From: a virus
Virus record (IMG/VR): IMGVR_UViG_3300048694_001005
Location: 64,001 to 128,000 of that record
Reading direction: 5' to 3' (one strand)
DNA length: 64,000 nt
The notes under the pieces: generated by a model
What the model saw: the letters and a program-made list of their open reading frames with translations, nothing else
Told to the model about the DNA's origin: nothing
Databases searched by the model: none
In this document: one piece after another, positions 21,201 to 61,351 of the stretch
How the letters are laid out: every line of letters starts with the position of its first letter
Position numbering within the stretch: position 1 is the first letter of the stretch
Translations under genes and position numbers: made by a program

Positions 21201-24200
21201 CCGACGTTATACATGCAGAATACGACCTAGTACAGGAAAATAACCCACGCAGCCGCCCAGCAGACTCCCTGCTGAGCAAATTAATTGATAGTTTGTCTGG
21301 GCAAGATGCCATGGGTAAAGAAGTGCCGGATACTAATCTGTATGGTACATTAAAATACGGAATAGAGAACAGGCCACGTCAGGGAATGTTTGTTAATCGT
21401 TTGACGGCATTGAAAGTCATGCTGTTAAAGGTAAATGAGATCTTTAGTTCATACAAACTGGTAGAAATATATGACACAGATAGGCTCAAAATAGCTGAAC
21501 CTGCACCTAGTGCAGTAAGTGGGGCATGGGACGAGTCTGTGGCAAACTTAACTGAACTAAGTTACATCAATACCTCAACATTAACTCCTGGTTATAAAGT
21601 TCTGGTGGAAAATGACAGCAACTATTACAACGGTTGGTCAATCCATACCTACAGCGGGGGATGGTCGGTAACCAGTCATCAGTCTTACAATTTAAATAGA
21701 TTCTGGCAATATGTTGACTATGTGGCCAGCAGTTACGATGCATCCAAGCTGCCTAAATACACTGTAGAAAACAAATATGATCTGCTTAAAAATCAATATG
21801 TGTTGAATGACACAGTAAAGATCATGGACAATGGATCCGGCAGATACGAGATCATCAAATATGTAAACGATGACACTGGTAATCTAATTACTGAAACCCT
21901 AGTTTTAGAAAACGGTACAGTAAACTTTACCAATGAACTTTATACTCAAGCTTTAGTAAATGACGGCAGTACACTAAGCCAAACTTACAGTAAAGAGCTG
22001 CGTAATTTGTTTGAACTTTTGTTTAACGATCTATTCACAAATGAATTGGAAAAACATGTAAACGAATTGTTCTTTGTGGCTATACGATATATTCTACGCG
22101 AGCAGAAGAATGTGGATTGGCTGTTTAAGACCAGCTTAATAGACATCAAACACTACTTTAGAAAGCTGGAACAGCAAAGTGTTTATTTGAAAGACAATCA
22201 AACATTCTTACTAGATTACATTACAGAAACCAAACCCTATCATACCAAAATACGTGAATACTTAATCAACTATACCGGATTAGATGATTGGGCTGGAGAT
22301 CCTTCTGACTTTGATTTGCCTGCTTATTATGACGGTGATTTATCTGTATTTAGAAGTCCCAGCGGAGAAAAATCCACAGATGCTAACAAACTAGAAACAG
22401 ATTTGCATTATAGAATGTGGAATCTTAACCATGGGTATGGTGTTGATAGTGTAATGATAGAAAACGCAGGTGTGAATTACCTTGTAGCACCAGATATCAA
22501 TATCATTGCTGCGACGGGAGACACGGGTAGTGGTGCCAAAGCTTATGCATTGGTAAGCGGTGGCAAATTACGTGAAATTATTGTGACAGATCCTGGCAAA
22601 AATTATACAAAGACACCTACTGTAGAAGTTGTTGCAAATGATTCGGGCACTAGCGGCAAACTATATGCTCAGTTGGGTAACAAAACCATTAGGAAATGGA
22701 ACACTACAATACGCTTTGATCGTTATACCTATGGCACCGCAGTTCTTACTTGGGCAGCAAGTACATATTATCTGCAGGGTCAATACATAGCACACAATCA
22801 TGTTTTATATAAAGTAGAAGTAGCTGACGGTAGCAGTGCAGGCTTTACCAGTAGCACAACTTTTGACACCGATAACTTGGTGAAAATTTCCAATCAAGAT
22901 TTGGCTGCTTTGATGGATGGCGACTTTGGCAGTGCTAATGACAGGATAACTGCATACTACCAGCCTCGTGATGGCATGCCGGGACAGGATCTCGCTCAGG
23001 TACAAACTGGTATTGATTATCCTGGCGTAATAGTGGATGCACAAAACTTTACCGATTTGCCAACCAACTATCCTACAATTGCCAGCGGATTAGATGACAC
23101 AGTTATTACTAGCCAGTTTACAGATACTGATCTAGGCACTAGGGCAGAGGATATTCTAGTTGATGGTAAAGCATTTATAGACGTTTACTCTAGCCATGCA
23201 CCACAAGAATTAATTCCCGGTAGAATGTATGACACTCTGAATATGCAAGTGCATACAGTGCCGCGTACTGATTACAATTACATAATAAAAACGTGGGCAG
23301 CTTATAGCTATTACGCCAAAGGTGATTACATAAAATACGGTACACAGTTATATCAAGCTCTGTTTGCATATACAACTGGTGCTGCATTTTCAATATATGG
23401 GCCAGATGGCAGCACTATTGCATTAACAGCTCGCGATCCATTAACTGCTGGGGCCGGACCAGAAATAACTAACCTAAGCTTTACTGCTGACGGAACTACT
23501 ACCCAGTTCAGTTTCCGTGAAGTTGGACACAGTGATGATGTATTGTTTGTGTATACAAAAAATCGCGGATTACAAAAAGAGAACACAGATTTTACAGTTA
23601 ACTACAATGATAAATCAATCAATTTTGCTATCGCACCATTAGCTAACGAAACAGTGTTTATATCGGTACAAAGTCATGGTGGTAACTTCTTGTTGTATGA
23701 TAAGACTTACCAAATTCTAGCAGCTACAACACAAATAATTCTGCCAACTTATGATAACTTGGTACAGGATCTACTAGTTTTTGTTAACGGTCAACGTGTA
23801 TTTGAAGGCACAGCATCAAATCAGTTTACACATGCGGTAAGCAACAATCTGTACAATATACAGTTTAACACGGCATTGGTGTCTGGTGACTATGTGCATG
23901 TTTATGTCTATAGTCAACCACAAACCTATAGAGAAATACACAATACATACCAGAGTTTTGACACGCTACCATCAGTTAGCTATCCAACTGACTATACAAT
24001 AACCTTAGACAGACCACTGAAAACCAGTGGGCCCTATCATGCCAATATTATAGTGTTAGTTAATAATAACAGACTGCGTACACCAGAAAATACCTATCTG
24101 ACCGGCGATGGCAGCACTATAACATTTACGCCCAACTATGTAGCAGACATCAATGGTGCCACGGTGGACGGAAACGACATAGAAGTATATGTAAATGGAC

Positions 24201-25345
24201 AGCGTAAAACTTTTGGTGCCGATTATACATTGACCGCGCTAGACGGCAGTACCTTACGTTCTGTTATTTTTAATACTGCACCTGCCATGGGCGATGTTGT
24301 GGTGTTAAGTGAGACAACAGGTGCACAATTTAGTATGATAGATGCGCAAACTATATTGATAGCAGCTAGTGTGGCGTTGACTGTAAATAGTAAAGTTCGC
24401 ATTATTAGCTATGCAGATCATGACACCAGTTTAATTAAGACTAAAGTATATTCCGGCGCCGGCGCAGCTACAATCAGTATACCACACGGGTTCGATACAA
24501 TAGGATTTGATAGTGAGGATTCAGGATTCGATTCATCCTCTTCCTTGATCATCACTACCAACAAATATCCATTGCAATACACGCATACTAACACAAATTA
24601 TGTGCTAGTTTATCAAAACGGACAGTTTTTGCAGCCCAACACAGATTGGGATTTGGCTGATAGCGGTTCGCAAGTTGAAATTCATAGAAACATTAGTGCA
24701 AGTGACATAATCATAATCACAGAATTTACTGAAAACAGTCAGGGCGGTCTAACCAGCTTTAGGATCTTTAAGAACTTACTGGATCAAACTAATTACTATG
24801 CTATCAACTATTCTGACAGTACTAAATTGTCAGCTGATTTGGGTATTTTTGACACAGAAATCAGTGTGCAAAATGCCCTAGCATTGCCCGCACCCAGCAC
24901 TGCCTATGCTAAACCCGGTGTTATATTCATAAATGGAGAACGCATAGCTTATTGGGAACGCGACACAGTAAACAACAAGCTGGGACGTATTATACGTGCC
25001 ACCGGTGGTACTGGTGCGCCTCAAGTACATGCTGCGGGGTCAGATTTGGTTAGTGCAGGCAAAAACCAGGAAATTACTAGCCTATACGACAACAGTATTG
25101 TAGCAAAATGGCAACCGCTTACTCAGTTTAAACAGGATACCTACGTATTATTTGAGGGCAGCATTTATCAAGTTACCACTACTTTCACTAGTGGAGCCTC
25201 ATTTACAACAGCCAATTTAACTTATCGTGCGCAATTTAGAGATATGGTATGGTATGATATGAATAACAAAACCTTGAGTTTAGTGGAAGCAGATACTACT
25301 CAAGCAGTATTTTTAAGACAAAAAGCGGGCTTTATTCCAACATAA
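12284..25345 (+). CDS. Giant (4353 aa) baseplate wedge/adhesin structural protein
   Basis: Uninterrupted 13 kb ORF after gp6; contains FG-GAP-like repeats (about 18850-20460), four W-x4/5-Y-x2-G CBM-like motifs (17576, 22751, 23294, 25109) and GDG-T-T-x-F Ig-like modules (19445, 23486, 24104). Confidence 0.75.
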   Translation: MPIRTLNLLPKVFQTDHNKKFLNATLDQLTTEPNFARLNGYVGKKTSPAFIPTDNYVIEPALNRQQYQLEPSVVVKEPNKDAFIANYNDMVNAVNFAGGDNIDHNKLFANKYYSYDGLFDFDKLVNYNQYYWLPNGLDPVVVSTGDIATAAQYTITRDSVDDAYKITDYVQLNPLLVLARGGTYTFTVNQTSQFYIQAAPGTAGEYPFQTNISAREVYGVTNNGADNGTVTFVVPQRSAQDWILDLPEQDSVNYATTLNYAQIQGANFDSFINTYGGIDGVKDLNNKVIVFVNPSSNDADWYDPYTDSIIPTAKRANTFIVRVDTTGSAPTLRVEEYILVGANYKFKVLGGNDYGYRYFYKEPVHLQLELLPPVTANIDTLYYQDSTNTNMLGLIKLIDTQIDTPINVDTDIVGQKNYTSPNNVVFTNGLRVQFDTTATPPSYQLKEYYVEGVGDAIRLVPVSELIVPETWIPSAAVPWDSNKWDSQPWDPNVSLGPTQPDYFTINRASRDRNSWSRTNRWFHIDVINAVAEYNNYTPTIDKNANAKRPIIEFNYDVQLYNSGSVFKQAINAFDTVTTDAFSHVEGSSGYAIDGITLTNGMFVVFAAETDENVRNKVYKVNIVDPSGDGSSITHLTLVEHAQVLAKEGLLVRQGTNYQGKMVWFDGTAWHTAQQKLGVNQSPLFDVFDDSGISYSDTSKYPSTTFAGNKIFSYRPGNGKNDINLGLALTYKSIANIGDIVFDNNLDAESFAYTLDNTVKTIQLFDGKLHVNNSLTNYTQKTVWTPVFEDSKQFQHLEYLAEQGQTEFLVYSFGDPSNYVNNFKLFVNNKFVNSDNYVFETIHDRAYIILTSALSLNDKVDIFVYASTQTIPNAYYEIPKNLEVNALNAVASTFTLGQLRRHIGQIYQNSKQVTGSYLGSSNLRDLPKIKDIGGTLLQHSASVVPAALFMTHPDANLIDAINNAAREYTRFKNKVLDQALKLDLTKSLTVPQMLDEILGTINAVKTKDFAWYYSDMLAYGEDSVENVTTITIENDAQLEYDLYTKFDLTQPSRRGVCVYVNDNQLVHGIDYTFLTIRPAIALTAGTIATYDVLKIVEYNTTNGSYIPETPTKLGLWPSKSPRLYTDDTFVTETLCIEGHDGSIIPAFGDFRDDILLEFEKRIYNNLKVQWNLNKLSVFDVKSGAFRTTDYSRDQYNNILSQFFNAWASKYGLDYTTNDTFLSNNSFTWNYKKLSDRVFGELLQGGWRAIFDHFYDTMRPHTHPWEMLGFDQKPSWWQQRYGAAPYTSGNLVLWEDLRDGRIFTGDRAGIDARFARPDLLDIIPTDEYGELRPPVEIFVKAFDSRKTKISWAFGDIGPVEAAWRRSSEFAFASQAAMSVAKPAKYFGLFIDNDKYLYDAAINEFTFNGLNRRLQVSDYVLNSETVDTEIVSKASYLNWIIDRLNGQGVNGVDRIRSLIDNLTVNLTYAFAGYTGPAMLNSFAEQASPNSVGKSILVPEENQSIVIKKSVPLLKIVYSAVIIERTGTGFKVQGYDIAEPYFTIIPSLANSNSTTITVMGNTATVYNDYDAVKTTIPYGTEFVNKQQVVDFLISYNRYLVSQGIRFNEYEGDLGANRDFILSAQEFLNWSQQGWDSQTVIVLNPLANKVFLTRPGYVVDEINGSQVGASRVLDQNFNYLRDDQFNVVRINNSFTINAVNSNLALVEMNLVQYEHAIVYDNRTIFNDVIYEPETGNRQLRIKLVGYKTREWDGSVYAPGFIYNSTNVDAWTAGVDYKAGALVEYKNQYYTALMDVAAENVFEFNKWQIIDKNKIKTGLLPNFSNLAGRSERFYDITNANFESSIDLYSKGLIGFRPRSYLTELGIDDISQVKFYQGYIREKGTNSALNALLGAKFDRFTTEIDAYENWAIRVGEFGAIDSTQVLELVLTENNFAANPSFLSLLNDGDTAESGTTGYSPNAVGDGKIVIVPKNYTKNLFLTTTDKLNVEEELLTAGYLKTTHADTFIFDLTNINADSPATLIDPIGSGHKIWVAKKNNKDWTLLRAEQTQVQVINITNALDNTLAVKTSDRHNLAINDYIVIKNFDINFNFIYRVKEILDLKTFKVDANTTLTSNLSGFNSLDGTGVLYKLSTVRFNTVSDWAAYTPREGWQTDDVAAIDHWGPNYVDWAVFKKRDIWSKNQTLDAWDASTNQNYGSSVAFVNTGDYMLVGAPAEGTGKVFVYIKDSNGQYQHLTSITQSTANLSGFGTTLTGSNADYFAVGCPTSDTNTGFVYIYKINTSLGTVSLVGSVKTGPSTGSYLGQSLSFSKDGLWLYVGAPGVNRVYIWGRSSTTFYQVGTYITPADIGAGDQFGYSVSCSTDGAQVLVGAPFNDTGSTDAGAVYIYDRSIESFVGDGSTTVYTLLRSPDTNIKLSTVEGVVQTGETYTGSGNKTVTFSTAPGNGSLIKIASNNFQLLKKLTTPVTQSQQQFGTSTVLCPFDCTAYVGAPLVDSANSVQNAGAVYRYTNMGRLYGKATGTVTNPAVTIGHGIRINDFDVVFTGTSLTSVVNDINNKAIPGIGASAVNNQLYIECDIVLVADKLRILPGSGTALTDLGLDVFKNTQTISNPNPIADDQFGTVLAISDDALKLAIGSALETSIETTSFDGNTTTFDLGSLKFVDQVGQSGAVLVYEYVSDRIDNDSSPGSFILDRYLEPGNLQLANKFGSSVAMNGSYIAVGAIGDDKFGSNYGAMYVFAAAKSTAWYVDGQAVPRVNTDAINRLFLYDSVTHTKLVDLELIDPVKVKVPGNAISQIDFVEDLDPAVYGDTAASINEIWGSMQVGKVWWNTDKVRYLDYEQGDFQYRSTHWGDTFPGSEIEICEWTRSSVLPSSYVAVNGNNFDGYPVFGDARVVTETRTDAATGLTMTNYYYWVRRKTTVNTNSGRTLTISAVEDLITDPKAQGLAYAVVLSNNSIGLYNTATYLNASNTLLHVDYDVQLNTDVIHAEYDLVQENNPRSRPADSLLSKLIDSLSGQDAMGKEVPDTNLYGTLKYGIENRPRQGMFVNRLTALKVMLLKVNEIFSSYKLVEIYDTDRLKIAEPAPSAVSGAWDESVANLTELSYINTSTLTPGYKVLVENDSNYYNGWSIHTYSGGWSVTSHQSYNLNRFWQYVDYVASSYDASKLPKYTVENKYDLLKNQYVLNDTVKIMDNGSGRYEIIKYVNDDTGNLITETLVLENGTVNFTNELYTQALVNDGSTLSQTYSKELRNLFELLFNDLFTNELEKHVNELFFVAIRYILREQKNVDWLFKTSLIDIKHYFRKLEQQSVYLKDNQTFLLDYITETKPYHTKIREYLINYTGLDDWAGDPSDFDLPAYYDGDLSVFRSPSGEKSTDANKLETDLHYRMWNLNHGYGVDSVMIENAGVNYLVAPDINIIAATGDTGSGAKAYALVSGGKLREIIVTDPGKNYTKTPTVEVVANDSGTSGKLYAQLGNKTIRKWNTTIRFDRYTYGTAVLTWAASTYYLQGQYIAHNHVLYKVEVADGSSAGFTSSTTFDTDNLVKISNQDLAALMDGDFGSANDRITAYYQPRDGMPGQDLAQVQTGIDYPGVIVDAQNFTDLPTNYPTIASGLDDTVITSQFTDTDLGTRAEDILVDGKAFIDVYSSHAPQELIPGRMYDTLNMQVHTVPRTDYNYIIKTWAAYSYYAKGDYIKYGTQLYQALFAYTTGAAFSIYGPDGSTIALTARDPLTAGAGPEITNLSFTADGTTTQFSFREVGHSDDVLFVYTKNRGLQKENTDFTVNYNDKSINFAIAPLANETVFISVQSHGGNFLLYDKTYQILAATTQIILPTYDNLVQDLLVFVNGQRVFEGTASNQFTHAVSNNLYNIQFNTALVSGDYVHVYVYSQPQTYREIHNTYQSFDTLPSVSYPTDYTITLDRPLKTSGPYHANIIVLVNNNRLRTPENTYLTGDGSTITFTPNYVADINGATVDGNDIEVYVNGQRKTFGADYTLTALDGSTLRSVIFNTAPAMGDVVVLSETTGAQFSMIDAQTILIAASVALTVNSKVRIISYADHDTSLIKTKVYSGAGAATISIPHGFDTIGFDSEDSGFDSSSSLIITTNKYPLQYTHTNTNYVLVYQNGQFLQPNTDWDLADSGSQVEIHRNISASDIIIITEFTENSQGGLTSFRIFKNLLDQTNYYAINYSDSTKLSADLGIFDTEISVQNALALPAPSTAYAKPGVIFINGERIAYWERDTVNNKLGRIIRATGGTGAPQVHAAGSDLVSAGKNQEITSLYDNSIVAKWQPLTQFKQDTYVLFEGSIYQVTTTFTSGASFTTANLTYRAQFRDMVWYDMNNKTLSLVEADTTQAVFLRQKAGFIPT

Positions 25346-40947: not shown

Positions 40948-42327
40948 TTATAAAACTATAGACCAACGCCCGTTTTTATATTCACCTTCGTAACTGCGAA
41001 TCCAATGACTACCGGTCCATTTATATTGTTGATTAGTTGCAATATTTGTTACGTATTTAATTTCCAAAGTTTCCCTAGAATCTAAACTTACTACCCATTG
41101 AGTACCATTATATTGAATAATATCGTTGGCATTGGCAACAAGATCCTGTGACCCTGTGCCTTTCCAAGCATCTGCACCATCAATATTGGCCGCATCACCT
41201 ATGCTTTGCGTCAAAATGTAACGTTGCCCTGTAGTTGCTGCTGGTAATCCTGCGCCAGGACCTTTAGTAAGTGGATTAATTATAGCATTAACCGCAGCTT
41301 CTGTGTCAACAGGTATGGTATCTTGATTTACTGTAAACAATAATACACTATCATCAGTAGGATGAAATGCCACCGTACCAATTACTTCTGTTTCCTCATC
41401 GCTCTGCAACAAACGAATTTGGCTTATACCCTCCGTGAGTTTACCATACACATTGATTAGAGCACGCCAATTGTCTCTTGTACCGTTTTTGCTTAAGTTT
41501 GGATTAGTTGTATCCTGGTATTTTAGTAGAGTAAGTTGATTACCATTTAGTATAACGCCATAGTTCATGGGTGTATAGTAAGAACGATTGCCTAACAAGG
41601 TCCATTGATCAATATTGTCTAGATTTAAATTGCCATGAGCATCATATATGCCGCCTATGATTTTTTGTATCACGCCCAGTTTTTTAATTTTCACTGGTGC
41701 GCTGATCCAGATTGGCATTTCAAAAGTATATGTAAAGATGTCTATTGGGTCATCAGTGCCAACCGGGATAGATCTACTGCTCCAGCTGGTATCAGTTAAT
41801 GTGACTACACTTAAACTGGTCCAGTCAACGTAGTTGTCTGTACTTTGTACTTCGATACTGGGGTTAAACAACCAACCTAACTGTTCAATAATTTGCAGTT
41901 TTTGTTCTGTATTGCTGGTCCATATATCTGCCTTAATTGTTAGCTTATATGGAGCCGGCATTAATCGCTCAATAGTAAAAGCGTTACCCTGCGTAGTTTG
42001 ATATTCACCGGTATGCTCGTCATAAGCACGTTCTCTTATGTGCATATTGCTAACAAAATAGGGATTCTGTACACGCTCACGATCATAGGCTAGTCCAGAA
42101 ATATAACAACTAATCATGGGCACTGTGTTTAAAGTATTTTCGCTATTATTGCGAAGAATATTTGCAGCTTGACGGCTACTGTCGCCATAACGTGCAGGAA
42201 CTCTTTGCAATGTTACATTTCCCTCGGTGTCCTTGCCAAATTGAACTTGAAAGTTACTCATCAGTCTTATAAACTGTATAAGGTAACGTTTGATTTGCTC
42301 ATCATAAAAAAATGGAACTGCGGTCAT
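40948..42327 (-). CDS. gp15: Tail sheath stabiliser/terminator (gp15-like)
   Basis: FFYDEQIKRYLIQFIRLMSNFQV, VPARYG, P.ISCYI.GL.YD.ER, MPAPYKL, QIIEQL..LFNP. Confidence 0.75.
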   Translation of the reverse strand: MTAVPFFYDEQIKRYLIQFIRLMSNFQVQFGKDTEGNVTLQRVPARYGDSSRQAANILRNNSENTLNTVPMISCYISGLAYDRERVQNPYFVSNMHIRERAYDEHTGEYQTTQGNAFTIERLMPAPYKLTIKADIWTSNTEQKLQIIEQLGWLFNPSIEVQSTDNYVDWTSLSVVTLTDTSWSSRSIPVGTDDPIDIFTYTFEMPIWISAPVKIKKLGVIQKIIGGIYDAHGNLNLDNIDQWTLLGNRSYYTPMNYGVILNGNQLTLLKYQDTTNPNLSKNGTRDNWRALINVYGKLTEGISQIRLLQSDEETEVIGTVAFHPTDDSVLLFTVNQDTIPVDTEAAVNAIINPLTKGPGAGLPAATTGQRYILTQSIGDAANIDGADAWKGTGSQDLVANANDIIQYNGTQWVVSLDSRETLEIKYVTNIATNQQYKWTGSHWIRSYEGEYKNGRWSIVL

Positions 42328-43466
42328 GTTATTTTATTCCTGTTGCTTAGGGCTTTACTTAGACCCTGTCGACTTTGAACTGTCTCGCCACCTACTGTTA
42401 CATTCGCAGTATTGTTAGCGAATGCAGCTTTGAAGTTAGTACCACTGCCAGGCGTGTAATTATCACGAACTGCGTCTTCAACTTTAACCCAGCGTCGGCC
42501 ATCAAATCTAAATAATCTATGTGGCAAATAATCCATACGCAGTGCATATTCCCCCACAGTGGGATTGTCGGGAAAGTTGATGCCGCTGGTAACCGGAAAA
42601 CCGTTAGGCGCTAACCCATCACCTGTTAAATATCCTTCAATGCTTTTGTCTGGTGTAGTCACTGCGGTATCCACAGTACTGCCATCAGCGCCGATTACTG
42701 TTTCAGGATTTCCCTGTATGTCATTTTCAACTGGTACTGTATACAACTGAGTTGTGTCGTAACCGCTTTGTGGTGTTTCTGCTTCTGCTTGAGTTACAAC
42801 AGCGTCATTTATATTAATATTTTTGTCGTATGTGCTTAAAATTTGCGCCAAGGTATCAGTAGTATCTTCGCCTGCGGTAATATTATTCAATATATCTTTG
42901 TATTCTTGGCTATCAACAAGTGGTGTAATTTTTGCACGTAATAAATGTGGCCACCAAGTTGGACTATAGCCTTCACTGGCAAACGCTACATCCTGAACTA
43001 CATAATAACGCTTCAATGCTACAGGTATGGTCTCGTCCAGGCTCCAATAATCCTTTTTGTGTTGCAGCTCTAATACGTCACCACTTAGCAATTTTCTGCC
43101 TAAAATCTCTACTGTATCTTTTATATGGAAAACTATGAACAGGGTATCGTTGCTAAGGAAAATACCAAACTGCTCCAAGTTAAAATCAACATCTGCGGTT
43201 TGGTATATGCCGCGTAGATTGTAGACGCTGGTATCATATTTCCTATCTCTATTTTCTAAGAACAATAGATCCTGTATATTTTGTGCTGATTGGTTAATGT
43301 AGTCCGGCTTGGTAGCATCTGTGCTGCCAGTTTGCTGGATTGGGCCTAGATATTTGTGTACATTAATGCCAGTACCGCCTATCGTGAACATTTCACTGAT
43401 ACGGCTATCTATAAATTTGTAGTCTTTGCTGTGGGCACCATTCTGCCAAAGCGATAATCTGGGCAA
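42324..43466 (-). CDS. gp14: Neck / head-completion protein (gp14-like)
   Basis: IQDLLFLENRDRKYD..LRGIY..DFNLEQFGIFL..DTLFIVFH..GDVLEL..FASEG; TTG start; co-transcribed with gp15-like gene. Confidence 0.65.
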   Translation of the reverse strand: MPRLSLWQNGAHSKDYKFIDSRISEMFTIGGTGINVHKYLGPIQQTGSTDATKPDYINQSAQNIQDLLFLENRDRKYDTSVYNLRGIYQTADVDFNLEQFGIFLSNDTLFIVFHIKDTVEILGRKLLSGDVLELQHKKDYWSLDETIPVALKRYYVVQDVAFASEGYSPTWWPHLLRAKITPLVDSQEYKDILNNITAGEDTTDTLAQILSTYDKNININDAVVTQAEAETPQSGYDTTQLYTVPVENDIQGNPETVIGADGSTVDTAVTTPDKSIEGYLTGDGLAPNGFPVTSGINFPDNPTVGEYALRMDYLPHRLFRFDGRRWVKVEDAVRDNYTPGSGTNFKAAFANNTANVTVGGETVQSRQGLSKALSNRNKIT

Positions 43467-45884: not shown

Positions 45885-46271
45885 ATGAGAGCACGAGAAT
45901 TTATAGTTGAAACAGCACCTGACGGAAAAATGAAAGATGAACACAAAGCATCGCATACTGGTATGTGGCGTATGCGTGATGTTGGTGGCTATGATAGAAC
46001 TTACCACTTAAATCGTTTTATGATGGCTATGGCTATGTCAGATGGTAAAAGTACCGGCAAGATTGATGGTATAGATGCCAGTAGTTGGGTAGAGAAATTC
46101 AATATTGCTCATCCTTATACGCCACAGGAACACAATATGGTGGCCGCTGCAATGGCTACAATACCAACTGATGGTGAACAGCTCAGTGATGATTTAATGA
46201 GCCACGAAACCCCAGACGTCAATAAAACGAGTCCACTACCCAAAAAGAAAAAGAACCGTTACGGAGTTTAA
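45885..46271 (+). CDS. Hypothetical protein, putative internal head protein (paralog of 46272)
   Basis: Likely start 45885 (MRAREFIVE) just after neck stop; shares AMA, YT, VNK.SP.PK..KN..GV motifs with next gene. Confidence 0.7.
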   Translation: MRAREFIVETAPDGKMKDEHKASHTGMWRMRDVGGYDRTYHLNRFMMAMAMSDGKSTGKIDGIDASSWVEKFNIAHPYTPQEHNMVAAAMATIPTDGEQLSDDLMSHETPDVNKTSPLPKKKKNRYGV

Positions 46272-46640
46272 ATGAGATTTAAAGAAATCATGGAGCAGTT
46301 GGAGTTTCATAAAGATCACAAGGATGCTATTCCTGGTGCTGTAAAATCTGGTCTTGATGCAAATCCAGAAGGTCCCAGCAATTATTATCACAAATATAGG
46401 CTGGGTGTAGCAATGGCTGGCAGTCCAGAACATTTAGAGAATATAACTAATACTGGTCCTGCTTGCGATAACATGGTTACTTTGTCTTACACTGACGCTG
46501 ATCGTGACATCATTAAAAAAGCTCATAATAAAATGGGTTACCCATACAAAGAACTTACGTCCCAGGGTAGCAAAGAGCACGAGTCAGTAAACAAGGCAAG
46601 CCCAGTGCCCAAGCGTCGCAAAAATCAACACGGCGTATAA
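46272..46640 (+). CDS. Hypothetical protein, putative internal head protein (paralog of 45885)
   Basis: Starts MRFKEIME; ends VNKASPVPKRRKNQHGV versus VNKTSPLPKKKKNRYGV. Confidence 0.75.
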   Translation: MRFKEIMEQLEFHKDHKDAIPGAVKSGLDANPEGPSNYYHKYRLGVAMAGSPEHLENITNTGPACDNMVTLSYTDADRDIIKKAHNKMGYPYKELTSQGSKEHESVNKASPVPKRRKNQHGV

Positions 46641-51025: not shown

Positions 51026-51056
51026 AAAATAAAGGGGCTACGGCCCCTTTATTTTT
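51026..51056. terminator. Bidirectional Rho-independent terminator
   Basis: Perfect 13-bp stem AAAATAAAGGGGC-TACG-GCCCCTTTATTTT between sheath and convergent endonuclease. Confidence 0.9.
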
Positions 51057-52695
51057 GAGTCCATGTCCAACGGCTGTTACCGCAGTCCCAAATTCGTAGA
51101 TAGCCCTGTTTTAATCTATTTTCGTATTCGGTCAATTGTTGATCATCCTTTTTATTTTTTCTTAAAGCAAACCTATGAATACGTTTTAGGTTTTTCAAAT
51201 CAATATACCAATAATTGAGAGAAGTGTTGCCTTGGTAATCAAATCCTAAAGTTTGATATAATTTTCCTGAGCCCCACCTAAGGTCACCATAACTTATTAC
51301 ATGCTGTGGTTGATACTGTTTAATGAAAAAAGTAAATAACTTGCTTGCACCGCCCACAACATTTTTTCTTGTGCAGAACCTAACCAATTCCCAGTGGTTA
51401 CATTTTCTCTTTCCCCCTTTGGCTGGGTTTAAGGCTGCAAAGGTCATTACTGCCACTAACTCATTCGCAAAATAAAGTCCAAGTTTAATTTTAGATTTAG
51501 CGGAGCCCTGAATATGCCACAAGTCTAAAAAACCTTTTTCCTGTTCTTTGTTAATAATTTTCACTTCGCATTTTCTAGCATATATTTTTTCATTGGACAT
51601 CCCTAATGCATAGGTGAGTTTTTGTTTTACAATTTCTTTCTTGTGTTCCCATTCATCTTCAAAGATATGAATTAATTTAATACCCTGTTTTTGAGCTGCG
51701 CATAATTTTTCAAAATGATATTTTTTATCAACCCTAGTATCGTTATGCCAAAATAACCCATTGAATTCTATCCCAATCTTTTTTTCTGGAACAAAAATAT
51801 CAATCTCTTGATTACCTAACAATTTTTTATTTTCTAAAATTTCTAATCCTAGACTTTTAATGAATTGCTTGATTTGTTGTTCCTTCAAACTGCCTTTGTT
51901 GATGCCAGAACAGTACAAACAAGGTGTGCCAGCATTACGTATCCTCCATTTGTACGTTTCTGAAGGTAAAGCGTCAACATTGCCGCAATCGCAGGAAAAT
52001 TTTATTACTTTATTTGGATTCTCAAATAAATTTGTTTTTTCTTGATCGGCTGTAATATCTAATAACTTAATTGACGGTGGTGAGAATAATTGATAAGAGG
52101 TCCAACGGTTTTCTTCGCTTTTAGCTTTAAATTCTTCACTCAAATAGTAATGCTTTACTCCATAATTTTCTAACAATGTTTGCTGGCATTTTTCTAAATG
52201 AGTAGACAACTGTCCGGCATTAGTTACCCCATATCTTTCCTTCAATGTTTTCCTGCCTTTTATATTCAATTCTAAAGCTCGTTCTTTGGCTTTTTGAGCA
52301 GTGCGTGGCGAAACCTTTGCTCCGTATTTCTTCAACATAGTTTCGGTTCTTTTTACTTGTATGATTTTAGATTTCTGCGGATTATCCACACCATATTTTT
52401 TGAGGTTGGTGGCTCTAAATTTTGTTAATCGTGCATTAACTTTATCATGTGTTTTGGAAATTTGATCTCTACATTTAGTGCTACAGGTTTGTTTACCTAA
52501 AGATTTGACTGTTACACCACAGCAAATACAATAAGGTGACGTATTGTTCACAATGGAATAGATCTGTAAGTTGAGACTGACACCAGGATACAAAGCATCT
52601 AGAGAATTAATTATTTCTAAATTTTGCCTAGCTCGTCTGGTGCGCCCCTTGGCAGCTATTTTTTCAAAATACTCTTTAAGTTCGTTTTTGGTCAT
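51049..52695 (-). mobile_element. Hef-like homing endonuclease (PD-(D/E)xK / Vsr-like domain, KYGV repeats, C-terminal GNAT-like domain)
   Basis: KKYGVDNP, KKYGA, ERYGVTN, ENYGVKH repeats; EIDIFVPEKKIGIEFNGLFWH nuclease core; YARKCEVK..WELVRFC..VVGGASKL..IWDCG; AT/Lys-rich and antisense between sheath and tube. Confidence 0.8.
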
Positions 52696-55895: not shown

Positions 55896-56489
55896 ATGAA
55901 ATCACTAACCCATTACCTAACCGAAAGTGCAAGAACCTACAGTTTTAAAATAAAGATTGCTGTAGATAGCCTAACTGATGAACAAATTGATGCTATAGAG
56001 CAACAACTACAGGCATACAAATTGGTCAACATAAGCAAACCAAAACGACTGCCCATTCAACAAAATCCCTTGGGTTTTGAACATTTGGGTGCTGTTACTG
56101 TACAAGCTATGGAAGCTGAACTAGCTTACCCAGCAACTGATGTACAGGTAAAAGAAGCTGTAAGACTGGGTTGCAAATGTGCTGGCAATCACATTTATGT
56201 TGGTAGCGAAGCGCAAGAGCAAGATACTGTTCGTTTAGACCTGGACGAAAAAGATGGCAAGCCCATACTAATGCAGGATTATGATAAAAGTGATCCCAAA
56301 GTAAAAGAACTTTATGGTGATGAAAACATTAAGATCATACTAAAAGATTTTGACAGCAAGAAACGCAAGTATGAATTTGAAGTAGTTAACAACACCGAAG
56401 CAAAAAGCACGAATGATTTACCGCAGGGTAAGATGAGTCCTGTTGGCAGTACGCAAAACAAGATTCCAGACCCATATAAGAACCGTTAA
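55896..56489 (+). CDS. Hypothetical head-associated protein
   Basis: ATAAATA at 55870-55876 and AGGA SD point to start 55896 (MKSLTHYLTE), resembling a capsid-targeting leader. Confidence 0.7.
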   Translation: MKSLTHYLTESARTYSFKIKIAVDSLTDEQIDAIEQQLQAYKLVNISKPKRLPIQQNPLGFEHLGAVTVQAMEAELAYPATDVQVKEAVRLGCKCAGNHIYVGSEAQEQDTVRLDLDEKDGKPILMQDYDKSDPKVKELYGDENIKIILKDFDSKKRKYEFEVVNNTEAKSTNDLPQGKMSPVGSTQNKIPDPYKNR

Positions 56490-56500
56490 GGACCTGTACC

Positions 56501-58159
56501 ATGAAAATGATAAACGTATTGAACAAGCTAACTGAACTAAGCAAAGAAAACACCAGTCCCGATGTCAAACAGGCCCTGGAAAGTACACGTAAGATAAATG
56601 GTGATGCTAACCTACAGGTCATTGAAGAACACATCGTGGAAGGTCGCATTGACGATTTGAACGATCGTCGCGCAGCTAAAAAACGCAAAAGCAAAAAGCA
56701 CAAAGACAAAGCTGGCACCAAGGAAAAGCCACGTATGGTCAAGGGTCATCGTTATGGTGGTAGCAAACAAAAAGATGATGATGACAGAGAAGATTTGGAT
56801 GAAAGCGATGAGCTAGCACGCCGCGCTGATTTACGCGCCAAGTCTGGTGAAGGTATTTTGACTAAGAGAAAATATGGTCCTGAATACAAAGCTCACATGC
56901 GCAATAAAAAGAATTTAAAGCAGGATCCTTACAAGATTGCTGGACCAAAAGGTGCATTGCCCGAATCAGAAGTGCAAGAAGTAATCACTAAGAAAACACC
57001 TGCTGGTGAGATCATTAGTGATTTCCAAAAGAGCAAGAACCCAAAGTTTAAGGGTAAGAGCAAAGCCAAGCGCAAGGACATGGCGCTGGGAGCATACTAT
57101 GGCATGCATCCCGAAAAAAGCAAAGTTAAAGAAACAGCAATGACACCCAAGCAAAAGAAATTCGCAGCATTAGCAAAGCCTACGAACAAAATTACCTATG
57201 CTGACAAAATTGCTGGCGCACGTAAGAACACTGGAGTAAAAGAAACTAAACTAACACCCAAGCAAATGAAGATTGCTAAAGCAGCCAAGCCAACCAATGC
57301 AATTACCGGTGCTGATTTTGCAGCATTGCGTAAGGGACGTAAAGTTGAAAGCGCATTAGTTCGTGAAGGTACTGAGCGCAAAGCTAAAAACCTAACTGAA
57401 AGCAAAATGATCACAGAGACCAATGATTTGGTTGACTTGAGAAAACTAGCTGGCTTAAATGAATGCGGCATGATGGGTACCACAATGGGTGCACATACAC
57501 CAGCAAACATCAGTATTAATGCAAGTGCAGCCAGCGGCAGTGAAGTAGCCAGCATGATGCGTGACTTGATGCGTTTAGCCGGTGGCGAAACTTCGGCACA
57601 TGTGCCCGAGATTGCAGTAATGGATGGTGCAGCCTGCGGTGGTATGGAAGAAATGGTGGATGAAAGCGAACAAGACGGACACTTTGCTGATGCTACCACA
57701 GAACCAGCAGAGCAAGTATTTGACGAGAATCCAGTTGTTTCAATGACTGGTAAACAAGTGCAAACACCCAATGGTAATGCACGTCAAAACGACAATCCAC
57801 TAGAAGAAAGTCTTTGGAAAAAATACCAAGCACAGGTAAACGAAGGATTCGATCCTGAAAGTTTTGAAGGCAGCACAGATGTAACTTGGATTGGTGACGA
57901 TGGTGAAGAAGTGGAGGGATATGTAAATTATATCGCTACACCTGATCCACAAACCGGACATTTACATGTTAAGTTAACTGGTGGTGCTGTAACTGGTAAC
58001 AATATTGCTGCTAAAGTTGACGATCACATGATTCAGTATCTAATCACTGATCCAGACTACAGTGCGGAATATCAACAGGCTGCTGAACAGGATGCACAAG
58101 CACAGTGGGACTCACGTGACGCTAAACAGCACGACTTGGGCGATCCAGCAGCTATGTAA
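56501..58159 (+). CDS. Modular prohead-core/internal protein-like ORF with many [ILV]-x-E sites
   Basis: Basic modules separated by IVE-G, LDE-S, VKE-T (x2), LTE-S, LNE-C, VDE-S, LEE-S, VNE-G; 37-aa tandem duplication at 57143/57254. Confidence 0.7.
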   Translation: MKMINVLNKLTELSKENTSPDVKQALESTRKINGDANLQVIEEHIVEGRIDDLNDRRAAKKRKSKKHKDKAGTKEKPRMVKGHRYGGSKQKDDDDREDLDESDELARRADLRAKSGEGILTKRKYGPEYKAHMRNKKNLKQDPYKIAGPKGALPESEVQEVITKKTPAGEIISDFQKSKNPKFKGKSKAKRKDMALGAYYGMHPEKSKVKETAMTPKQKKFAALAKPTNKITYADKIAGARKNTGVKETKLTPKQMKIAKAAKPTNAITGADFAALRKGRKVESALVREGTERKAKNLTESKMITETNDLVDLRKLAGLNECGMMGTTMGAHTPANISINASAASGSEVASMMRDLMRLAGGETSAHVPEIAVMDGAACGGMEEMVDESEQDGHFADATTEPAEQVFDENPVVSMTGKQVQTPNGNARQNDNPLEESLWKKYQAQVNEGFDPESFEGSTDVTWIGDDGEEVEGYVNYIATPDPQTGHLHVKLTGGAVTGNNIAAKVDDHMIQYLITDPDYSAEYQQAAEQDAQAQWDSRDAKQHDLGDPAAM

Positions 58160-58636: not shown

Positions 58637-61351
58637 ATGCATGTATTAGATTTATTTGGTGAAGAGTCGCAGCCGTTAAATGAGGGTTCGGTAAAGAATA
58701 GAGATATCGAGCGTCAAGACTATGAAAACATGTCAGGACGAGAATTTTTGGCGGCTTATAAAATGGGCAAAGCAGAATGGGCGCTTAAAAACCCTGACAT
58801 TGTGCCAAAAAAATCTAAACCCAAAACCACCAACGAAGCTAAACCTGTGGCACATAGTATTGAACATGCTGTTTGGAGTAAAAAGTCCCCTGATGAACAA
58901 AAGTTTTTGAAACAGTTGCATCCCGACTTAAAAATCAAAAACGTACCACCAGCACCACGTCCTGAGCGAGTTAAAAAGACACCAATTGATTACGCCGCTA
59001 TTGCGCGTAAAGCCGAGAATGTCTGGGGCAATATATTTCCTGATGGCGATCCCGTAGATTGGATGTATCCGTATTTAAAACGCATGGGTATTCCTGCTGA
59101 AAAGCAATACAAGGTATTGGATCGAGCTATTAGATTGCATGTAGACAAAAAAGGTTATGATCATTGGTTGGAATCAAGCTGGGATCAAGTAGCTGACGAC
59201 AATATGATGCCAGGTACGGTTACTCGTGAAAATAATCCATGGCGAGTTTCTGAAGGTGTGACAGAAAATAGCGGAGACACAAGGGCTAAACTGGCCAAAA
59301 TCATTGCACGTGAAATGAAGACAGCAAAGTCCAGTGAGTTGACAAAGACACAACGCAAACACGCATTCGCGGTACTAACACGCGCCAAAGAAGCTAAACG
59401 TATGTTGGATGCTGGTGCAGATGAATCCACAGCATGGGCACACTTCCAAGGTACCAAGCAGGAAATGGCGGAAGGCAAATGGTTCCGCACCACTTATGGT
59501 TGGGCCGGTGGTGAGAAGCCTGGTGGCGGCAAATATGTTCATCCTGAGGTCGCAGCCGAACGTCGCCGTGAAAAAGCCAAGAAAAAGCGTGAACAGGAAC
59601 GACAAGCAAAGTCAGGTACAGGTGCCAAACCTACTACCAGTACACATTGCCCGGGCTGTTACAGTACCGATATCAAAACCTACAGTGATGGTGAGAAAGA
59701 ATGCCATCAATGCGGTAAAACTTGGCATGTTTTTGGAAATAGAATTTTTATAGATCATCAGGGCGAATGGGAGGAGAAAATCAGTAAAGTTTGGCCAAGA
59801 TCACAGATAGAATACTCCGGCGAAGATATGTATGCCGCTCGTCTAACAAATGGTTATCTCGTAGGAGCATTCAAAATAGATCAAGGTGGTTGGATAGAAA
59901 AGCCAAGGAAAGGTGTGGCGGAAGGCTCCAAAACTCCTTGGAAAGATTTAGATAAACCTTTTGACCGAGATGTTAAAAAAATGAAAAACCAAGGCAGCGC
60001 CAATCCATTGTACAAAAAGAAGGTTGGTGAGCAAGGTGTGGCGGAAGGCTCGGCGTATCAACATCATGTTGTATCAAAATTAGATGGCAATGTATTGGCT
60101 TCTTATAAGACGCGAGAAGAAGCTCAGAAAAATGCTCATGGTAATCCAGTTGTTTCTGGTTCTTTAGAGACCATTGGTGATAGACAATATACCAGAGAGC
60201 AAGGTGTGGCGGAAGGCTATTGGCAAGATGCCATACAGGATGTGGAAGCAGCACGTAAAGCACGTAAAGGCAAACCGTTTGAAAAGAATCCGCTAAGCCA
60301 TGATGAACAGGGAGTTTACATCGGTGATAAGGATTTAGCTGGCAATCCTGTACCTAAACCCAACGAAAAGGACGTGGCAGAAGCTAAGCCAGGACTGTAT
60401 GCCAATGTACAGGCCAAGCGCAGGAGAATCAAACAGGGATCTGGGGAGCGTATGCGCAAGCCTGGAACTAAGGGCGCACCCACTGCACAAGCTTGGCGCG
60501 ATGCAGCAAAAACAGCTAAGAAGGAAAGCATGGAGGAAAACATGAAACTTGTTGAATATTTGACACGTCCCGGAGAATCATTTGACGCAATTTTAGGTCT
60601 TAATGTTTTCGCTGATCTAGTAGGTGATGTTCAAGACATGGATGAAATGTTTGGAGAAAGTAGAGAATGGCGCAGGATTAGAAAGAAATACACCAAGATA
60701 GCCAAATACTATATTGATCTAGTTAACCAAATTTCCGCCACAGGTAGAAAGCTGACAAAGGAAGAGTCAGACGCTATTGAAATTTGGTGGTATGATGGCA
60801 ATGATATGTATGATGATGAAGAAATGTCTGGATTGGCGGAAACATACGATGGCCAACTTAAATTAGTTGAAAGACTAATTGGATCAGGACAATCGGGAGT
60901 GACCGAAGATTTGATGAATGAACTGTCCCGAGACACGCTAAAGAGTTATTTTGGTAAACGCATGGCATCAGCCACGTCCATGGACAAACGCAAAAATTTT
61001 AAAAAGGCTACTAAAATCATCAAAACTAATTTACCACTTGCTATGAAAAAACTTAAAGATCCAGCGTATGGTAAAGCTACGCCCAAATTAGTTGATGAAG
61101 CTGCCTTACCAGAAGAACTGTTTAAGACTACATCAGAAATCAATAACCCAACTGATGCCGTAAAAATGGATATCCCTCTACTGATTAGAATTATGGAATA
61201 CGCACGTGAAGATGCCAAAACTGACTTAGAGCTGCATGATGTAGCAGAACGATTAATTAGTTTGGGCAAGGCAGGTAACACATTAAGCATGCGTGACTAT
61301 GATAAGATTGTTGGCACTGATGCAAAGGCAATGATCAATAACAAACTATGA
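58637..61351 (+). CDS. Cassette-built polyprotein with repeated GVAEG-type linkers (putative head-packaged, protease-processed)
   Basis: Linkers GVTE, EMAEG, GVAEG x3, DVAEA, GVTED separate compositionally unrelated segments, one with a CPGC/CHQC zinc ribbon; late promoter and SD. Confidence 0.8.
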   Translation: MHVLDLFGEESQPLNEGSVKNRDIERQDYENMSGREFLAAYKMGKAEWALKNPDIVPKKSKPKTTNEAKPVAHSIEHAVWSKKSPDEQKFLKQLHPDLKIKNVPPAPRPERVKKTPIDYAAIARKAENVWGNIFPDGDPVDWMYPYLKRMGIPAEKQYKVLDRAIRLHVDKKGYDHWLESSWDQVADDNMMPGTVTRENNPWRVSEGVTENSGDTRAKLAKIIAREMKTAKSSELTKTQRKHAFAVLTRAKEAKRMLDAGADESTAWAHFQGTKQEMAEGKWFRTTYGWAGGEKPGGGKYVHPEVAAERRREKAKKKREQERQAKSGTGAKPTTSTHCPGCYSTDIKTYSDGEKECHQCGKTWHVFGNRIFIDHQGEWEEKISKVWPRSQIEYSGEDMYAARLTNGYLVGAFKIDQGGWIEKPRKGVAEGSKTPWKDLDKPFDRDVKKMKNQGSANPLYKKKVGEQGVAEGSAYQHHVVSKLDGNVLASYKTREEAQKNAHGNPVVSGSLETIGDRQYTREQGVAEGYWQDAIQDVEAARKARKGKPFEKNPLSHDEQGVYIGDKDLAGNPVPKPNEKDVAEAKPGLYANVQAKRRRIKQGSGERMRKPGTKGAPTAQAWRDAAKTAKKESMEENMKLVEYLTRPGESFDAILGLNVFADLVGDVQDMDEMFGESREWRRIRKKYTKIAKYYIDLVNQISATGRKLTKEESDAIEIWWYDGNDMYDDEEMSGLAETYDGQLKLVERLIGSGQSGVTEDLMNELSRDTLKSYFGKRMASATSMDKRKNFKKATKIIKTNLPLAMKKLKDPAYGKATPKLVDEAALPEELFKTTSEINNPTDAVKMDIPLLIRIMEYAREDAKTDLELHDVAERLISLGKAGNTLSMRDYDKIVGTDAKAMINNKL
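59910..60218 (+). repeat. Three exact 18-nt direct repeats AAGGTGTGGCGGAAGGCT
   Basis: 59910-59927, 60033-60050, 60201-60218; copies 2 and 3 extend to 22 nt (GAGC prefix); partial copies TGGCGGAAGGC at 59466, AAGGTGTG at 59253, GTGGCAGAAGCT at 60374. Confidence 0.95.

Follow-up and report, generated by a model that had tools for sequence, protein, structure and literature searches.

In phage T4, the internal head proteins IPI, IPII, IPIII and Alt are small, often basic cargo proteins that are highly variable between related phages and include an anti-restriction protein; they carry a short leader of the type MKTYQEFIAE/A (a slash marks the bond after the Glu) and are processed by the gp21 (S77) protease at Glu-specific hydrophobic-x-E sites (PMC9026906, PMC3012670). 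This protease cuts after Glu in L/I-x-E (PMC9026906), and ipII and ipIII start with MKTYQEFIAE/A, as read from NC_000866. Here we describe a locus that resembles this system in its leader, protease and variable small units and has putative Glu-specific sites of a related form, namely, an open reading frame (ORF) of 904 amino acids (aa) in a 64,000-nucleotide stretch of viral DNA (referred to as the window; bases 64001-128000 of the 180,565-bp IMG/VR record IMGVR_UViG_3300048694_001005). In this array ORF, unrelated small units, or cassettes, are joined in frame by a short linker. In our preferred reading, which we hold to be probable though far from assured, the ORF encodes the cargo polyprotein of a jumbo phage related to T4, and its linker is both the exchange point of the cassettes and a predicted cut site of the head protease.

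Whereas T4 makes one mature protein per gene and has its capsid-targeting sequence (CTS) only at the N terminus, arrays of this type would hold up to ten cargo proteins per chain, separated by repeats of what looks like the cleavable end of the leader, with their DNA fixed as well. Comparison with other described systems revealed the following likenesses and differences. (i) In the promoter early stem-loops (PeSL) of T4-type phages, short DNA motifs flank variable, non-essential modules and mark indels and replacements (PMC2839356, PMC4122927), and at the array locus, too, the repeated motif marks the borders of indels and replacements that distinguish close relatives. However, PeSL are intergenic, larger and contain an early promoter and a stem-loop terminator, whereas the linker is an in-frame direct repeat of 18-22 nucleotides (nt) that lacks a promoter, stem-loop or hairpin. 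(ii) In the gp38 adhesins of T-even phages, in-frame conserved motifs part variable segments, and exchanges occur there (PMC3157838); these glycine-rich motifs are the core of one fold and the segments are loops of one function, whereas the array consists of small autonomous proteins that are not related to one another, and its motif resembles a cleavage site. (iii) Polyvalent proteins are likewise long phage proteins with many unrelated modules that are thought to travel with the DNA (PMC5512222), but they consist of known enzymatic domains without a uniform linker, whereas the array modules are almost without Pfam matches and are joined by a single linker with fixed DNA. (iv) The giant phages phiKZ, 201phi2-1 and SPN3US cut many head proteins, among them inner-body and ejection proteins, after Glu at a very short motif, some of them at multiple sites (PMC9026906, PMC5694885, PMC7411985); there, however, the cuts remove propeptides of single proteins at S/A-x-E, and neither cassette arrays nor a DNA-level linker have been reported. 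(v) Integrons, too, are made up of small unrelated cassettes that vary in number and order and have a recurring site between them, but they differ by IntI, attC hairpins and separate promoterless genes. A search for IntI-type integrases (PF00589) gave no match in the 180-kb record, about half of the genome, whereas all control genomes matched. A first, sequence-only reading of the locus had called it integron-like, which is an analogy only, given the lack of an integrase in these 180 kb and of attC-like hairpins, and the in-frame fusion of the cassettes.

Linker DNA and cassette exchange

Since it lacks internal starts, the array ORF is translated as a single chain, as the sequence-only reading had proposed. 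Seven linkers of the form [GED][VM][AT]E, located where that reading had placed them (GVTE at 59255, EMAEG at 59462, GVAEG at 59912, 60035 and 60203, DVAEA at 60371, and GVTED at 60896), cut the chain into segments of 210, 69, 150, 41, 56, 56, 175 and 147 aa, so that the claimed unit sizes of 69, 150, 41, 56 and 56 aa were borne out. Two additional, non-canonical [LV]xE junctions were found (KLVE, 60539-60556; KLVDE, 61082-61099); units U3, U7 and U8 are composite, and the frame holds 8-11 units (Table 1). As claimed, the units are mutually unrelated: outside the linker, the best BLASTP match between them has an E value of 0.097.

The silent sites of the linker are conserved. The three GVAEG linkers are identical at the DNA level: each contains the exact 15-mer GGTGTGGCGGAAGGC, which is absent from the remainder of the window. 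They use codons that are rare in this genome (GCG, 12.7% of Ala codons; GTG, 20% of Val codons). With up to three mismatches allowed, GGTGTGGCGGAAGGC had 4 matches against 0.77 expected, a number reached in none of 100 shuffles. The repeat is longer than 15 nt, with 22 nt identical at 60029 and 60197 and identities of 86% and 73% at 59906 and 59456, respectively, and a fourth exact copy of the 15-mer is present in a second array of the same genome, 110 kb away. At the codon usage of the genome, the chance of the exact codon set for QGVAEG is 0.0016 per site.

This conservation extends across genomes, as had been predicted, and hundreds of contigs have the linker DNA with hardly a letter changed. 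The 18-mer CAAGGTGTGGCGGAAGGC was found in at least 120 IMG/VR contigs with GC contents of 34-52%, in all of them in frame as QGVAEG and within long ORFs (median, 542 aa), most of which have multiple linkers. The share of GCG in the linkers amounts to 68-93%, against a background of 8%. At loci found by protein homology and not by a DNA seed, 14 of 17 VAE linkers are encoded by GTG GCG GAA (1.4% expected), and after seed matches had been discarded, 183 linkers still showed GTG in 73% (background, 21%), GCG in 68% (background, 8%) and GTGGCGGAA in 54% of the cases. The bias is much weaker for non-linker VAE in the same ORFs (GTG, 12/38; GCG, 12/38), with GCG still above its 8% background. At the protein level, GVAE ranks first among the xxxE tetrapeptides of the 150 best homologues, with 175 occurrences where 2.2 are expected, and the linker consensus in these homologues is K/E-Q-G-V-A-E/G. 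Because the T4 protease needs only L/I-x-E (PMC9026906), the seven-residue consensus and the fixed codons cannot be explained by protease recognition alone.

The exchange of cassettes is best seen by comparison with the sister contig L005, which is 97% identical in the flanking genes and has an orthologous ORF of 1124 aa. A blastn alignment showed that (i) window positions 59731-60199 (U3c, U4 and U5) are replaced in L005 by 1471 nt that encode six other linker-bounded cassettes, (ii) one more cassette is present in L005 between U6 and U7a, at the linker itself (60374-60388), and (iii) a 537-nt block comprising U7b and U8a is missing from L005, while both gene ends are kept. Base-level identity starts exactly at CAAGGTGTGGCGGAAGGC before U6, and the sequence 5' of that point is unrelated. 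KLVE/ and KLVDE/, two non-canonical [LV]-x-E sites that lack the DNA repeat, form the borders of the 537-nt indel. In the ORF upstream of the array, which is similar in nature, the L005 ortholog has an extra module that ends in QGVAE/ and is inserted right after DLDE/. Cassettes also recur elsewhere: the second array of the genome (398 aa, C1 ~11.3-12.5 kb) reuses U4 and the zinc ribbon of U3 in a new context at 94-96% nt identity, the ribbon occurs there and in L005 without the 60-aa domain that follows it in the window, and U6 is found with 92% aa identity in an array of a different phage (L007), beside gp32- and UvsX-like genes. Among about 150 arrays, 28% of the internal ends of high-scoring segment pairs (HSPs) with at least 80% nt identity fell into a 24-nt linker interval, against 2.5% at random; protein-level HSP ends are a noisy measure of breakpoints, and high-identity nucleotide HSPs are clearer. 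The separate contig L004 repeats the cassette order of the window at 100% identity over its 4690 bp, which argues against assembly chimeras. Taken together, these data show that the linker is a frame-preserving exchange point where cassettes enter or leave an array, take the place of others, and are copied from gene to gene and from phage to phage; the predicted gain, loss and replacement between close relatives, with breakpoints at the linker, was confirmed by the L005 comparison.

Predicted head targeting and processing

The phage is a T4-related, uncultured jumbo phage. CheckV estimated the completeness of the 180,565-bp record at ~51%, and the genome is therefore of jumbo size, roughly 350 kb. 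According to the tail sheath, the closest cultured phages are Sinorhizobium phage Phosso, Agrobacterium phage Atu_ph07 and Pseudomonas phage PA5oct (44-49% identity), none of which contains a GVAEG-coding site in any codon form. The window encodes tail sheath, tube, head-tail adaptor and a family-B DNA polymerase, and the head module is found elsewhere in the record, with a portal, a Peptidase_S77 (gp21-type) prohead protease, a scaffold-like protein that is dense in [LIVM]-x-E sites, and a gp23-like capsid protein. The protease gene (C1:48684-49322) matches PF03420 with 101 bits at C1:48819-49253, and this phrog_207 protease adjoins the portal, scaffold-like and major head protein genes. The gp23-like protein carries an LME/T site at the position where T4 gp23 is cut. 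The capsid maturation site is likely LME/T, which would make GVAE a special case of the cleavage rule and not the rule itself.

The T4-type CTS has about 10-19 residues, among which residues 4 and 7 are key, and its cleavable end falls at residues 8-10 (PMC9026906). CTS-like leaders were present in 44% of the arrays but in only 10.5% of the remaining ORFs with a length of 200 aa or more (odds ratio, 6.7; p = 3.5e-10). Leaders of arrays with intact 5' ends were MRAQEFITE/G, MKINEIISE/Q, MNVFELFE/A and MFVDDLFD..TLTE/A, and in one array MRATEFIIE is joined directly to GVAE/G. The leader of the window ORF is an MxxxDLF variant (Table 1) that resembles a CTS by sequence only; relatives of this ORF start with MILDQLFE, MFVDDLFD or MIIDQLF. 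Furthermore, about a dozen non-array genes of the genome have T4-CTS-like leaders, such as MRAREFIVE, MRAKEFIFE, MRAHEILAE and MKINEIICE, and their leaders suggest that they form a large set of head-loaded proteins. Genes with such leaders include those at 45885-46271 and 46272-46640 of the window and at G000:C1:34118-38053 and 41448-43172. The sequence TATAAATA, located 22 nt upstream of the array start codon, resembles a late promoter, but carries little weight because its frequency in the genome is no higher than chance.

Several unit boundaries look like processing sites. Three families of cassettes are found in two settings, following a linker in some proteins and encoded by free genes with a CTS-like leader in others, with the same residue after the Glu: (i) ..QQDVAE/NFADG (L066) corresponds to free MRINELLE/NFADG (L097, L026), (ii) KQGVAE/DWQKV (L059) to free MRATEFITE/DWNKV (L052), and (iii) a GNAT-like cassette (L037) to free MRAKEFVSE/V.. 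(L035). For the NFADG peptide, there are another eight contexts in which it comes after a Glu. Likewise, the alignment of U7a, which follows DVAE/, with the 49-aa product of a free gene starts at residue 2 of the latter (phrog_16028, E = 1.4e-25; unit residues 1-48, profile 2-49). In Pelagibacter phage HTVC168P, the free phrog_16028 gene lies between the scaffold and capsid genes, and in Synechococcus phage S-RIP2 it follows the head-tail connector gene and precedes a gene annotated as gp10A-like. Signals that resemble those of the twin-arginine translocation (Tat) pathway, namely, RRGFLKG followed by an Ala/Gly-rich h-region, were internal in seven of seven cases and start 2-7 residues after a linker-type Glu, which belongs to a canonical linker in five of the seven. 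A Tat signal functions only at a free N terminus, and these positions suggest that some of the released cargo goes on to the periplasm. The Glu at the P1 position is invariant even at junctions without DNA repeat. Taken together, the leaders, the free genes, the U7a boundary and the Tat-like signals are most simply explained by cleavage after the linker Glu, and the array protein is probably targeted to the head and cut after each linker Glu by a gp21-type protease. The packaging and prohead-protease cleavage that the sequence-only reading had postulated thus find support of an indirect kind, in the gp21/S77 gene, the CTS-like leaders and the processing-like boundaries.

A number of side observations concern these cassette families. 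Arrays with Tat-like signals are L091, L118, L051, L121, L132 (G002:C1 ~175-181 kb) and L133, as well as P0077. Two CTS-led proteins (L034:12366-13052 and L021:3199-3861, both on the minus strand) combine a cytidine-deaminase-like zinc motif (HAE..PC..C) with a C-terminal NFADG behind a Glu site, and by these motifs may be injected deaminases. The phrog_16028 family comprises basic proteins of ~50 aa, with genes located between those for scaffold and capsid in marine T7-like podophages of Pelagibacter, Synechococcus, Prochlorococcus and Roseobacter (OR420735.1, 17708-17857 [L130, 2498-2647]; HQ317389.1 [L131, 2489-3001]); it may be an unrecognised head-internal protein of these phages.

Module families, features and neighbouring genes

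An exhaustive phmmer search, run on 1.84 billion cluster representatives, returned 3342 hits with E <= 0.001. No hit spanned the whole protein; each was confined to one or two cassettes, which could stand anywhere in proteins that ranged from 83 to 1497 aa. Each cassette recurs, at differing positions, in hundreds of other proteins, and the cassettes matched were the U1 core, U3c, U5, U6, U7a, U7b and the C-terminal domain. The last of these (aa 822-904) is the most widespread, with well over a hundred cluster representatives, both free and in arrays, and has the motif PLLIRxxEYAREDAKTDxxLH. AlphaFold2 (AF2) predicted it confidently as a small helical bundle, with a predicted local distance difference test score (pLDDT) above 90 in the core; the model has no fold match in the PDB and resembles only uncharacterised proteins of uncultured phages. 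Free-standing U6 was found only as one 64-aa fragment. No Pfam family reached the cut-off in any unit of the array ORF, and in seven long arrays only a GNAT domain and DUF6267 did so. A PHROGs scan of each unit returned nothing but U7a as phrog_16028, and the ESM Atlas gave no usable hit for U1. The term effectors, which the sequence-only reading had applied to the units, is unproven, as no known function was found for any unit. Two candidate lines were set aside: a single-sequence AF2 model of U4-U7a was uninformative (mean pLDDT, 54), and a family of ~244 aa flagged by the linker pattern was judged a false positive on inspection because its AIAE/D always stands at the same place in a conserved full-length protein.

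Table 1. Coordinates of the array ORF, its units and linkers, and related genes in the window
Feature	Position	Strand	Basis or remark
Array ORF, 904 aa, one chain	58637..61351	+	no ATG or Shine-Dalgarno (SD) restart after any linker
N-terminal leader MHVLDLFGEE..PLNE/G, CTS-like	58637..58684	+	hydrophobic 4 (Leu), Phe 7, Glu 9/10, LNE/G 14-16
U1, aa 1-210, ends GVTE	58637..59266	+	core aa 60-215 recurs elsewhere, e.g., 72% identity in L006
U2, 69 aa, isoelectric point (pI) 9.9, ends EMAE	59267..59473	+	linker-bounded
U3, 150 aa, composite, ends KGVAE	59474..59923	+	basic stretch, zinc ribbon, 60-aa domain
U3 CxxC..CxxC zinc ribbon	59645-59731	+	part of U3
U3 60-aa domain	59732-59923	+	part of U3
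U4, 41 aa, pI 9.6, ends QGVAE	59924..60046	+	96% nt copy in second array
U5, 56 aa, ends QGVAE	60047..60214	+	many recurrences in other proteins
U6, 56 aa, ends DVAE	60215..60382	+	92% aa identity in L007 array
U7a, aa 583-640, pI ~11, ends KLVE	60383..60556	+	phrog_16028, E 1.4e-25
U7b, acidic, ends GVTE	60557..60907	+	separate linker-bounded cassette in L012
U8a, ends KLVDE	60908..61099	+	with U7b missing from L005 (60548-61084)
U8b, C-terminal helical domain	61100..61348	+	most widespread module; also free proteins of 83-150 aa
Linker copy 1 (AGGAAAGGTGTGGCGGAAGGCT)	59906..59927	+	repeat comparison
Linker copy 2 (GAGCAAGGTGTGGCGGAAGGCT)	60029..60050	+	repeat comparison
Linker copy 3, same as copy 2	60197..60218	+	L005 homology begins exactly here
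Linker DVAE/A (GAC GTG GCA GAA GCT)	60371..60385	+	extra L005 cassette inserted here
Upstream 552-aa ORF, similar to array ORF	56501..58159	+	L005 ortholog of 727 aa with two extra modules
Two small CTS-led genes (MRAREFIVE/T, MRFKEIME/Q)	45885..46640	+	leader pattern
Probable head-targeted protein, starts MKSLTHYLTE/S	55896..56489	+	weak virion-protein PHROG match from this Met

Some further features of the genome were recorded. The upstream ORF (56501-58159) contains an internal tandem duplication of a basic module at 57120-57330 (TPKQKKFAALAKPTNKITYAD / TPKQMKIAKAAKPTNAITGAD). A single ORF of 4353 aa occupies 12284-25345 (plus strand) in the tail/baseplate region. There are two paralogous large HNH/homing-endonuclease genes (phrog_3339), one at 51049-52695 (minus strand) between the tail sheath and tube genes and the other at G000:C1:44242-45678 (minus strand), adjoining a gp23-like capsid gene that is unusually short (392 aa). 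A third endonuclease gene lies between the protease gene and that of the scaffold-like protein.

Alternative readings and biological meaning

According to the cargo-polyprotein reading, about ten unrelated small proteins would be encoded in one frame, mostly joined by (K/E)QGVAE/G or by a weaker [LVM]-x-E/ variant. The T4-CTS-like leader would load the chain into the prohead core, a gp21-type protease would then cut after every linker Glu, and the freed small proteins would remain with the DNA and enter the next host, where products with a Tat signal would be exported to the periplasm. Transfer into other arrays would be limited to cassettes with flanks that match the shared 18-22 nt; we propose that the linker is homogenised and kept beyond the needs of the protease because recombination requires matching flanks. 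A more far-reaching version, in which the linker is a dedicated frame-preserving exchange site of an uncultured jumbo-phage clade as well as a cut mark, and thereby a protein-coding 'integron without integrase', so that any small gene caught between two linkers is automatically loaded, released and injected and some of the products are Tat-exported by the next host, we put forward tentatively, as a possibility that falls somewhat short of even chances.

Several points weigh against the cargo-polyprotein reading. (i) The leader of the window ORF matches a CTS less well than those of many relatives, and the cassettes of this ORF carry no Tat signal. (ii) The linkers read V/M-A/T-E followed by G, A, N or D, with Val or Met at P3 and not the Leu or Ile of T4. 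(iii) A gp21 gene was found in 6 of the 15 larger array-bearing contigs, the remainder being partial records. (iv) About 60% of the homology breakpoints are outside canonical linkers, and the junction at 59730 precedes, and does not follow, a Glu site. (v) Neither the linker nor the NFADG cassette is present in any cultured phage of INPHARED. (vi) Recombination is the best explanation of the frozen linker DNA, but its occurrence at 18-22 nt of identity is an assumption. The lack of gp21 and gp23 in two large array-bearing contigs was first also taken as counter-evidence; in one contig without them, a homologous sheath gene is near the end, and the head module is thus probably beyond the record.

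If the chain were left uncut, as a multidomain protein of the polyvalent type with the linker serving as a flexible spacer and DNA crossover point, it would have precedents in the multidomain conflict proteins of phages (PMC5512222); moreover, the protease motif is so short that a match to it is weak evidence, and the AF2 model of U4-U7a does not help to decide. We consider this unlikely, since all seven Tat-like signals stand just behind a linker Glu and need a free N terminus, the same cassettes exist as free genes with a cleavable leader, the U7a boundary coincides with the N terminus of the free protein, and the P1 Glu is invariant even where the DNA repeat is lacking. The chain might also be cut at its linkers outside the capsid, by a host protease or another phage protease, with products that act in the producing cell. 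Tat cassettes would serve that cell equally well, and array genes are found at varied genome sites, near the DNA polymerase here and near gp32/UvsX-like genes in L007. However, CTS-like leaders are enriched on arrays, Glu-specific [LVM]-x-E sites fit the gp21 rule (PMC9026906), the free U7a homologue is encoded in a head module, and the window ORF belongs to a series of virion genes and has the late-promoter-like TATAAATA at its 5' side, although this motif occurs no more often than by chance; cleavage outside the capsid thus appears quite unlikely to us.

The remaining alternatives concern the linker DNA. Its silent-site conservation might reflect a role in RNA or translation (a ribosome pause at a G-rich, SD-like stretch) or as the target of a homing endonuclease, given that a protease motif cannot account for fixed codons, that the genome has several HNH/homing endonuclease genes and that the linker contains AAGG/GGAAGG. 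Yet the flanks are unrelated and offer no conserved pairing partner, no endonuclease gene consistently adjoins the arrays, and the 11-fold enrichment of breakpoints in the linker is what recombination predicts; such a role is therefore improbable. All data stem from metagenomic contigs, which raises the question of chimeric assembly at a short repeat, or of chance. The likelihood of such an artefact is close to negligible, because the repeat has only 15-22 nt, L004 reproduces the arrangement over its full length, the frame is kept in all of the at least 120 contigs and the observed linker count was reached by no shuffle.

Full-text literature searches identified no description of the linker or of such arrays, and the only matches to the linker peptide were papers on alpha-synuclein, a coincidence. 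The feature is real, widespread and, as far as we found, unpublished. In T4, a ten-residue leader can reportedly load any protein into the capsid and deliver it into the cell. The phages described here appear to generalise this principle, with one gene for a whole, changeable set of cargo, and one short sequence seems to be both the cut mark in the protein and the DNA crossover point that moves cargo between genes and phages. If true, such a system would give viruses a novel route for the evolution of an injected arsenal, and it would explain a case of extreme silent-site conservation. It would also open up hundreds of unknown small-protein families, which probably act in the first seconds of infection, and would provide a natural design for the delivery of multiple cargo proteins in phage capsids.

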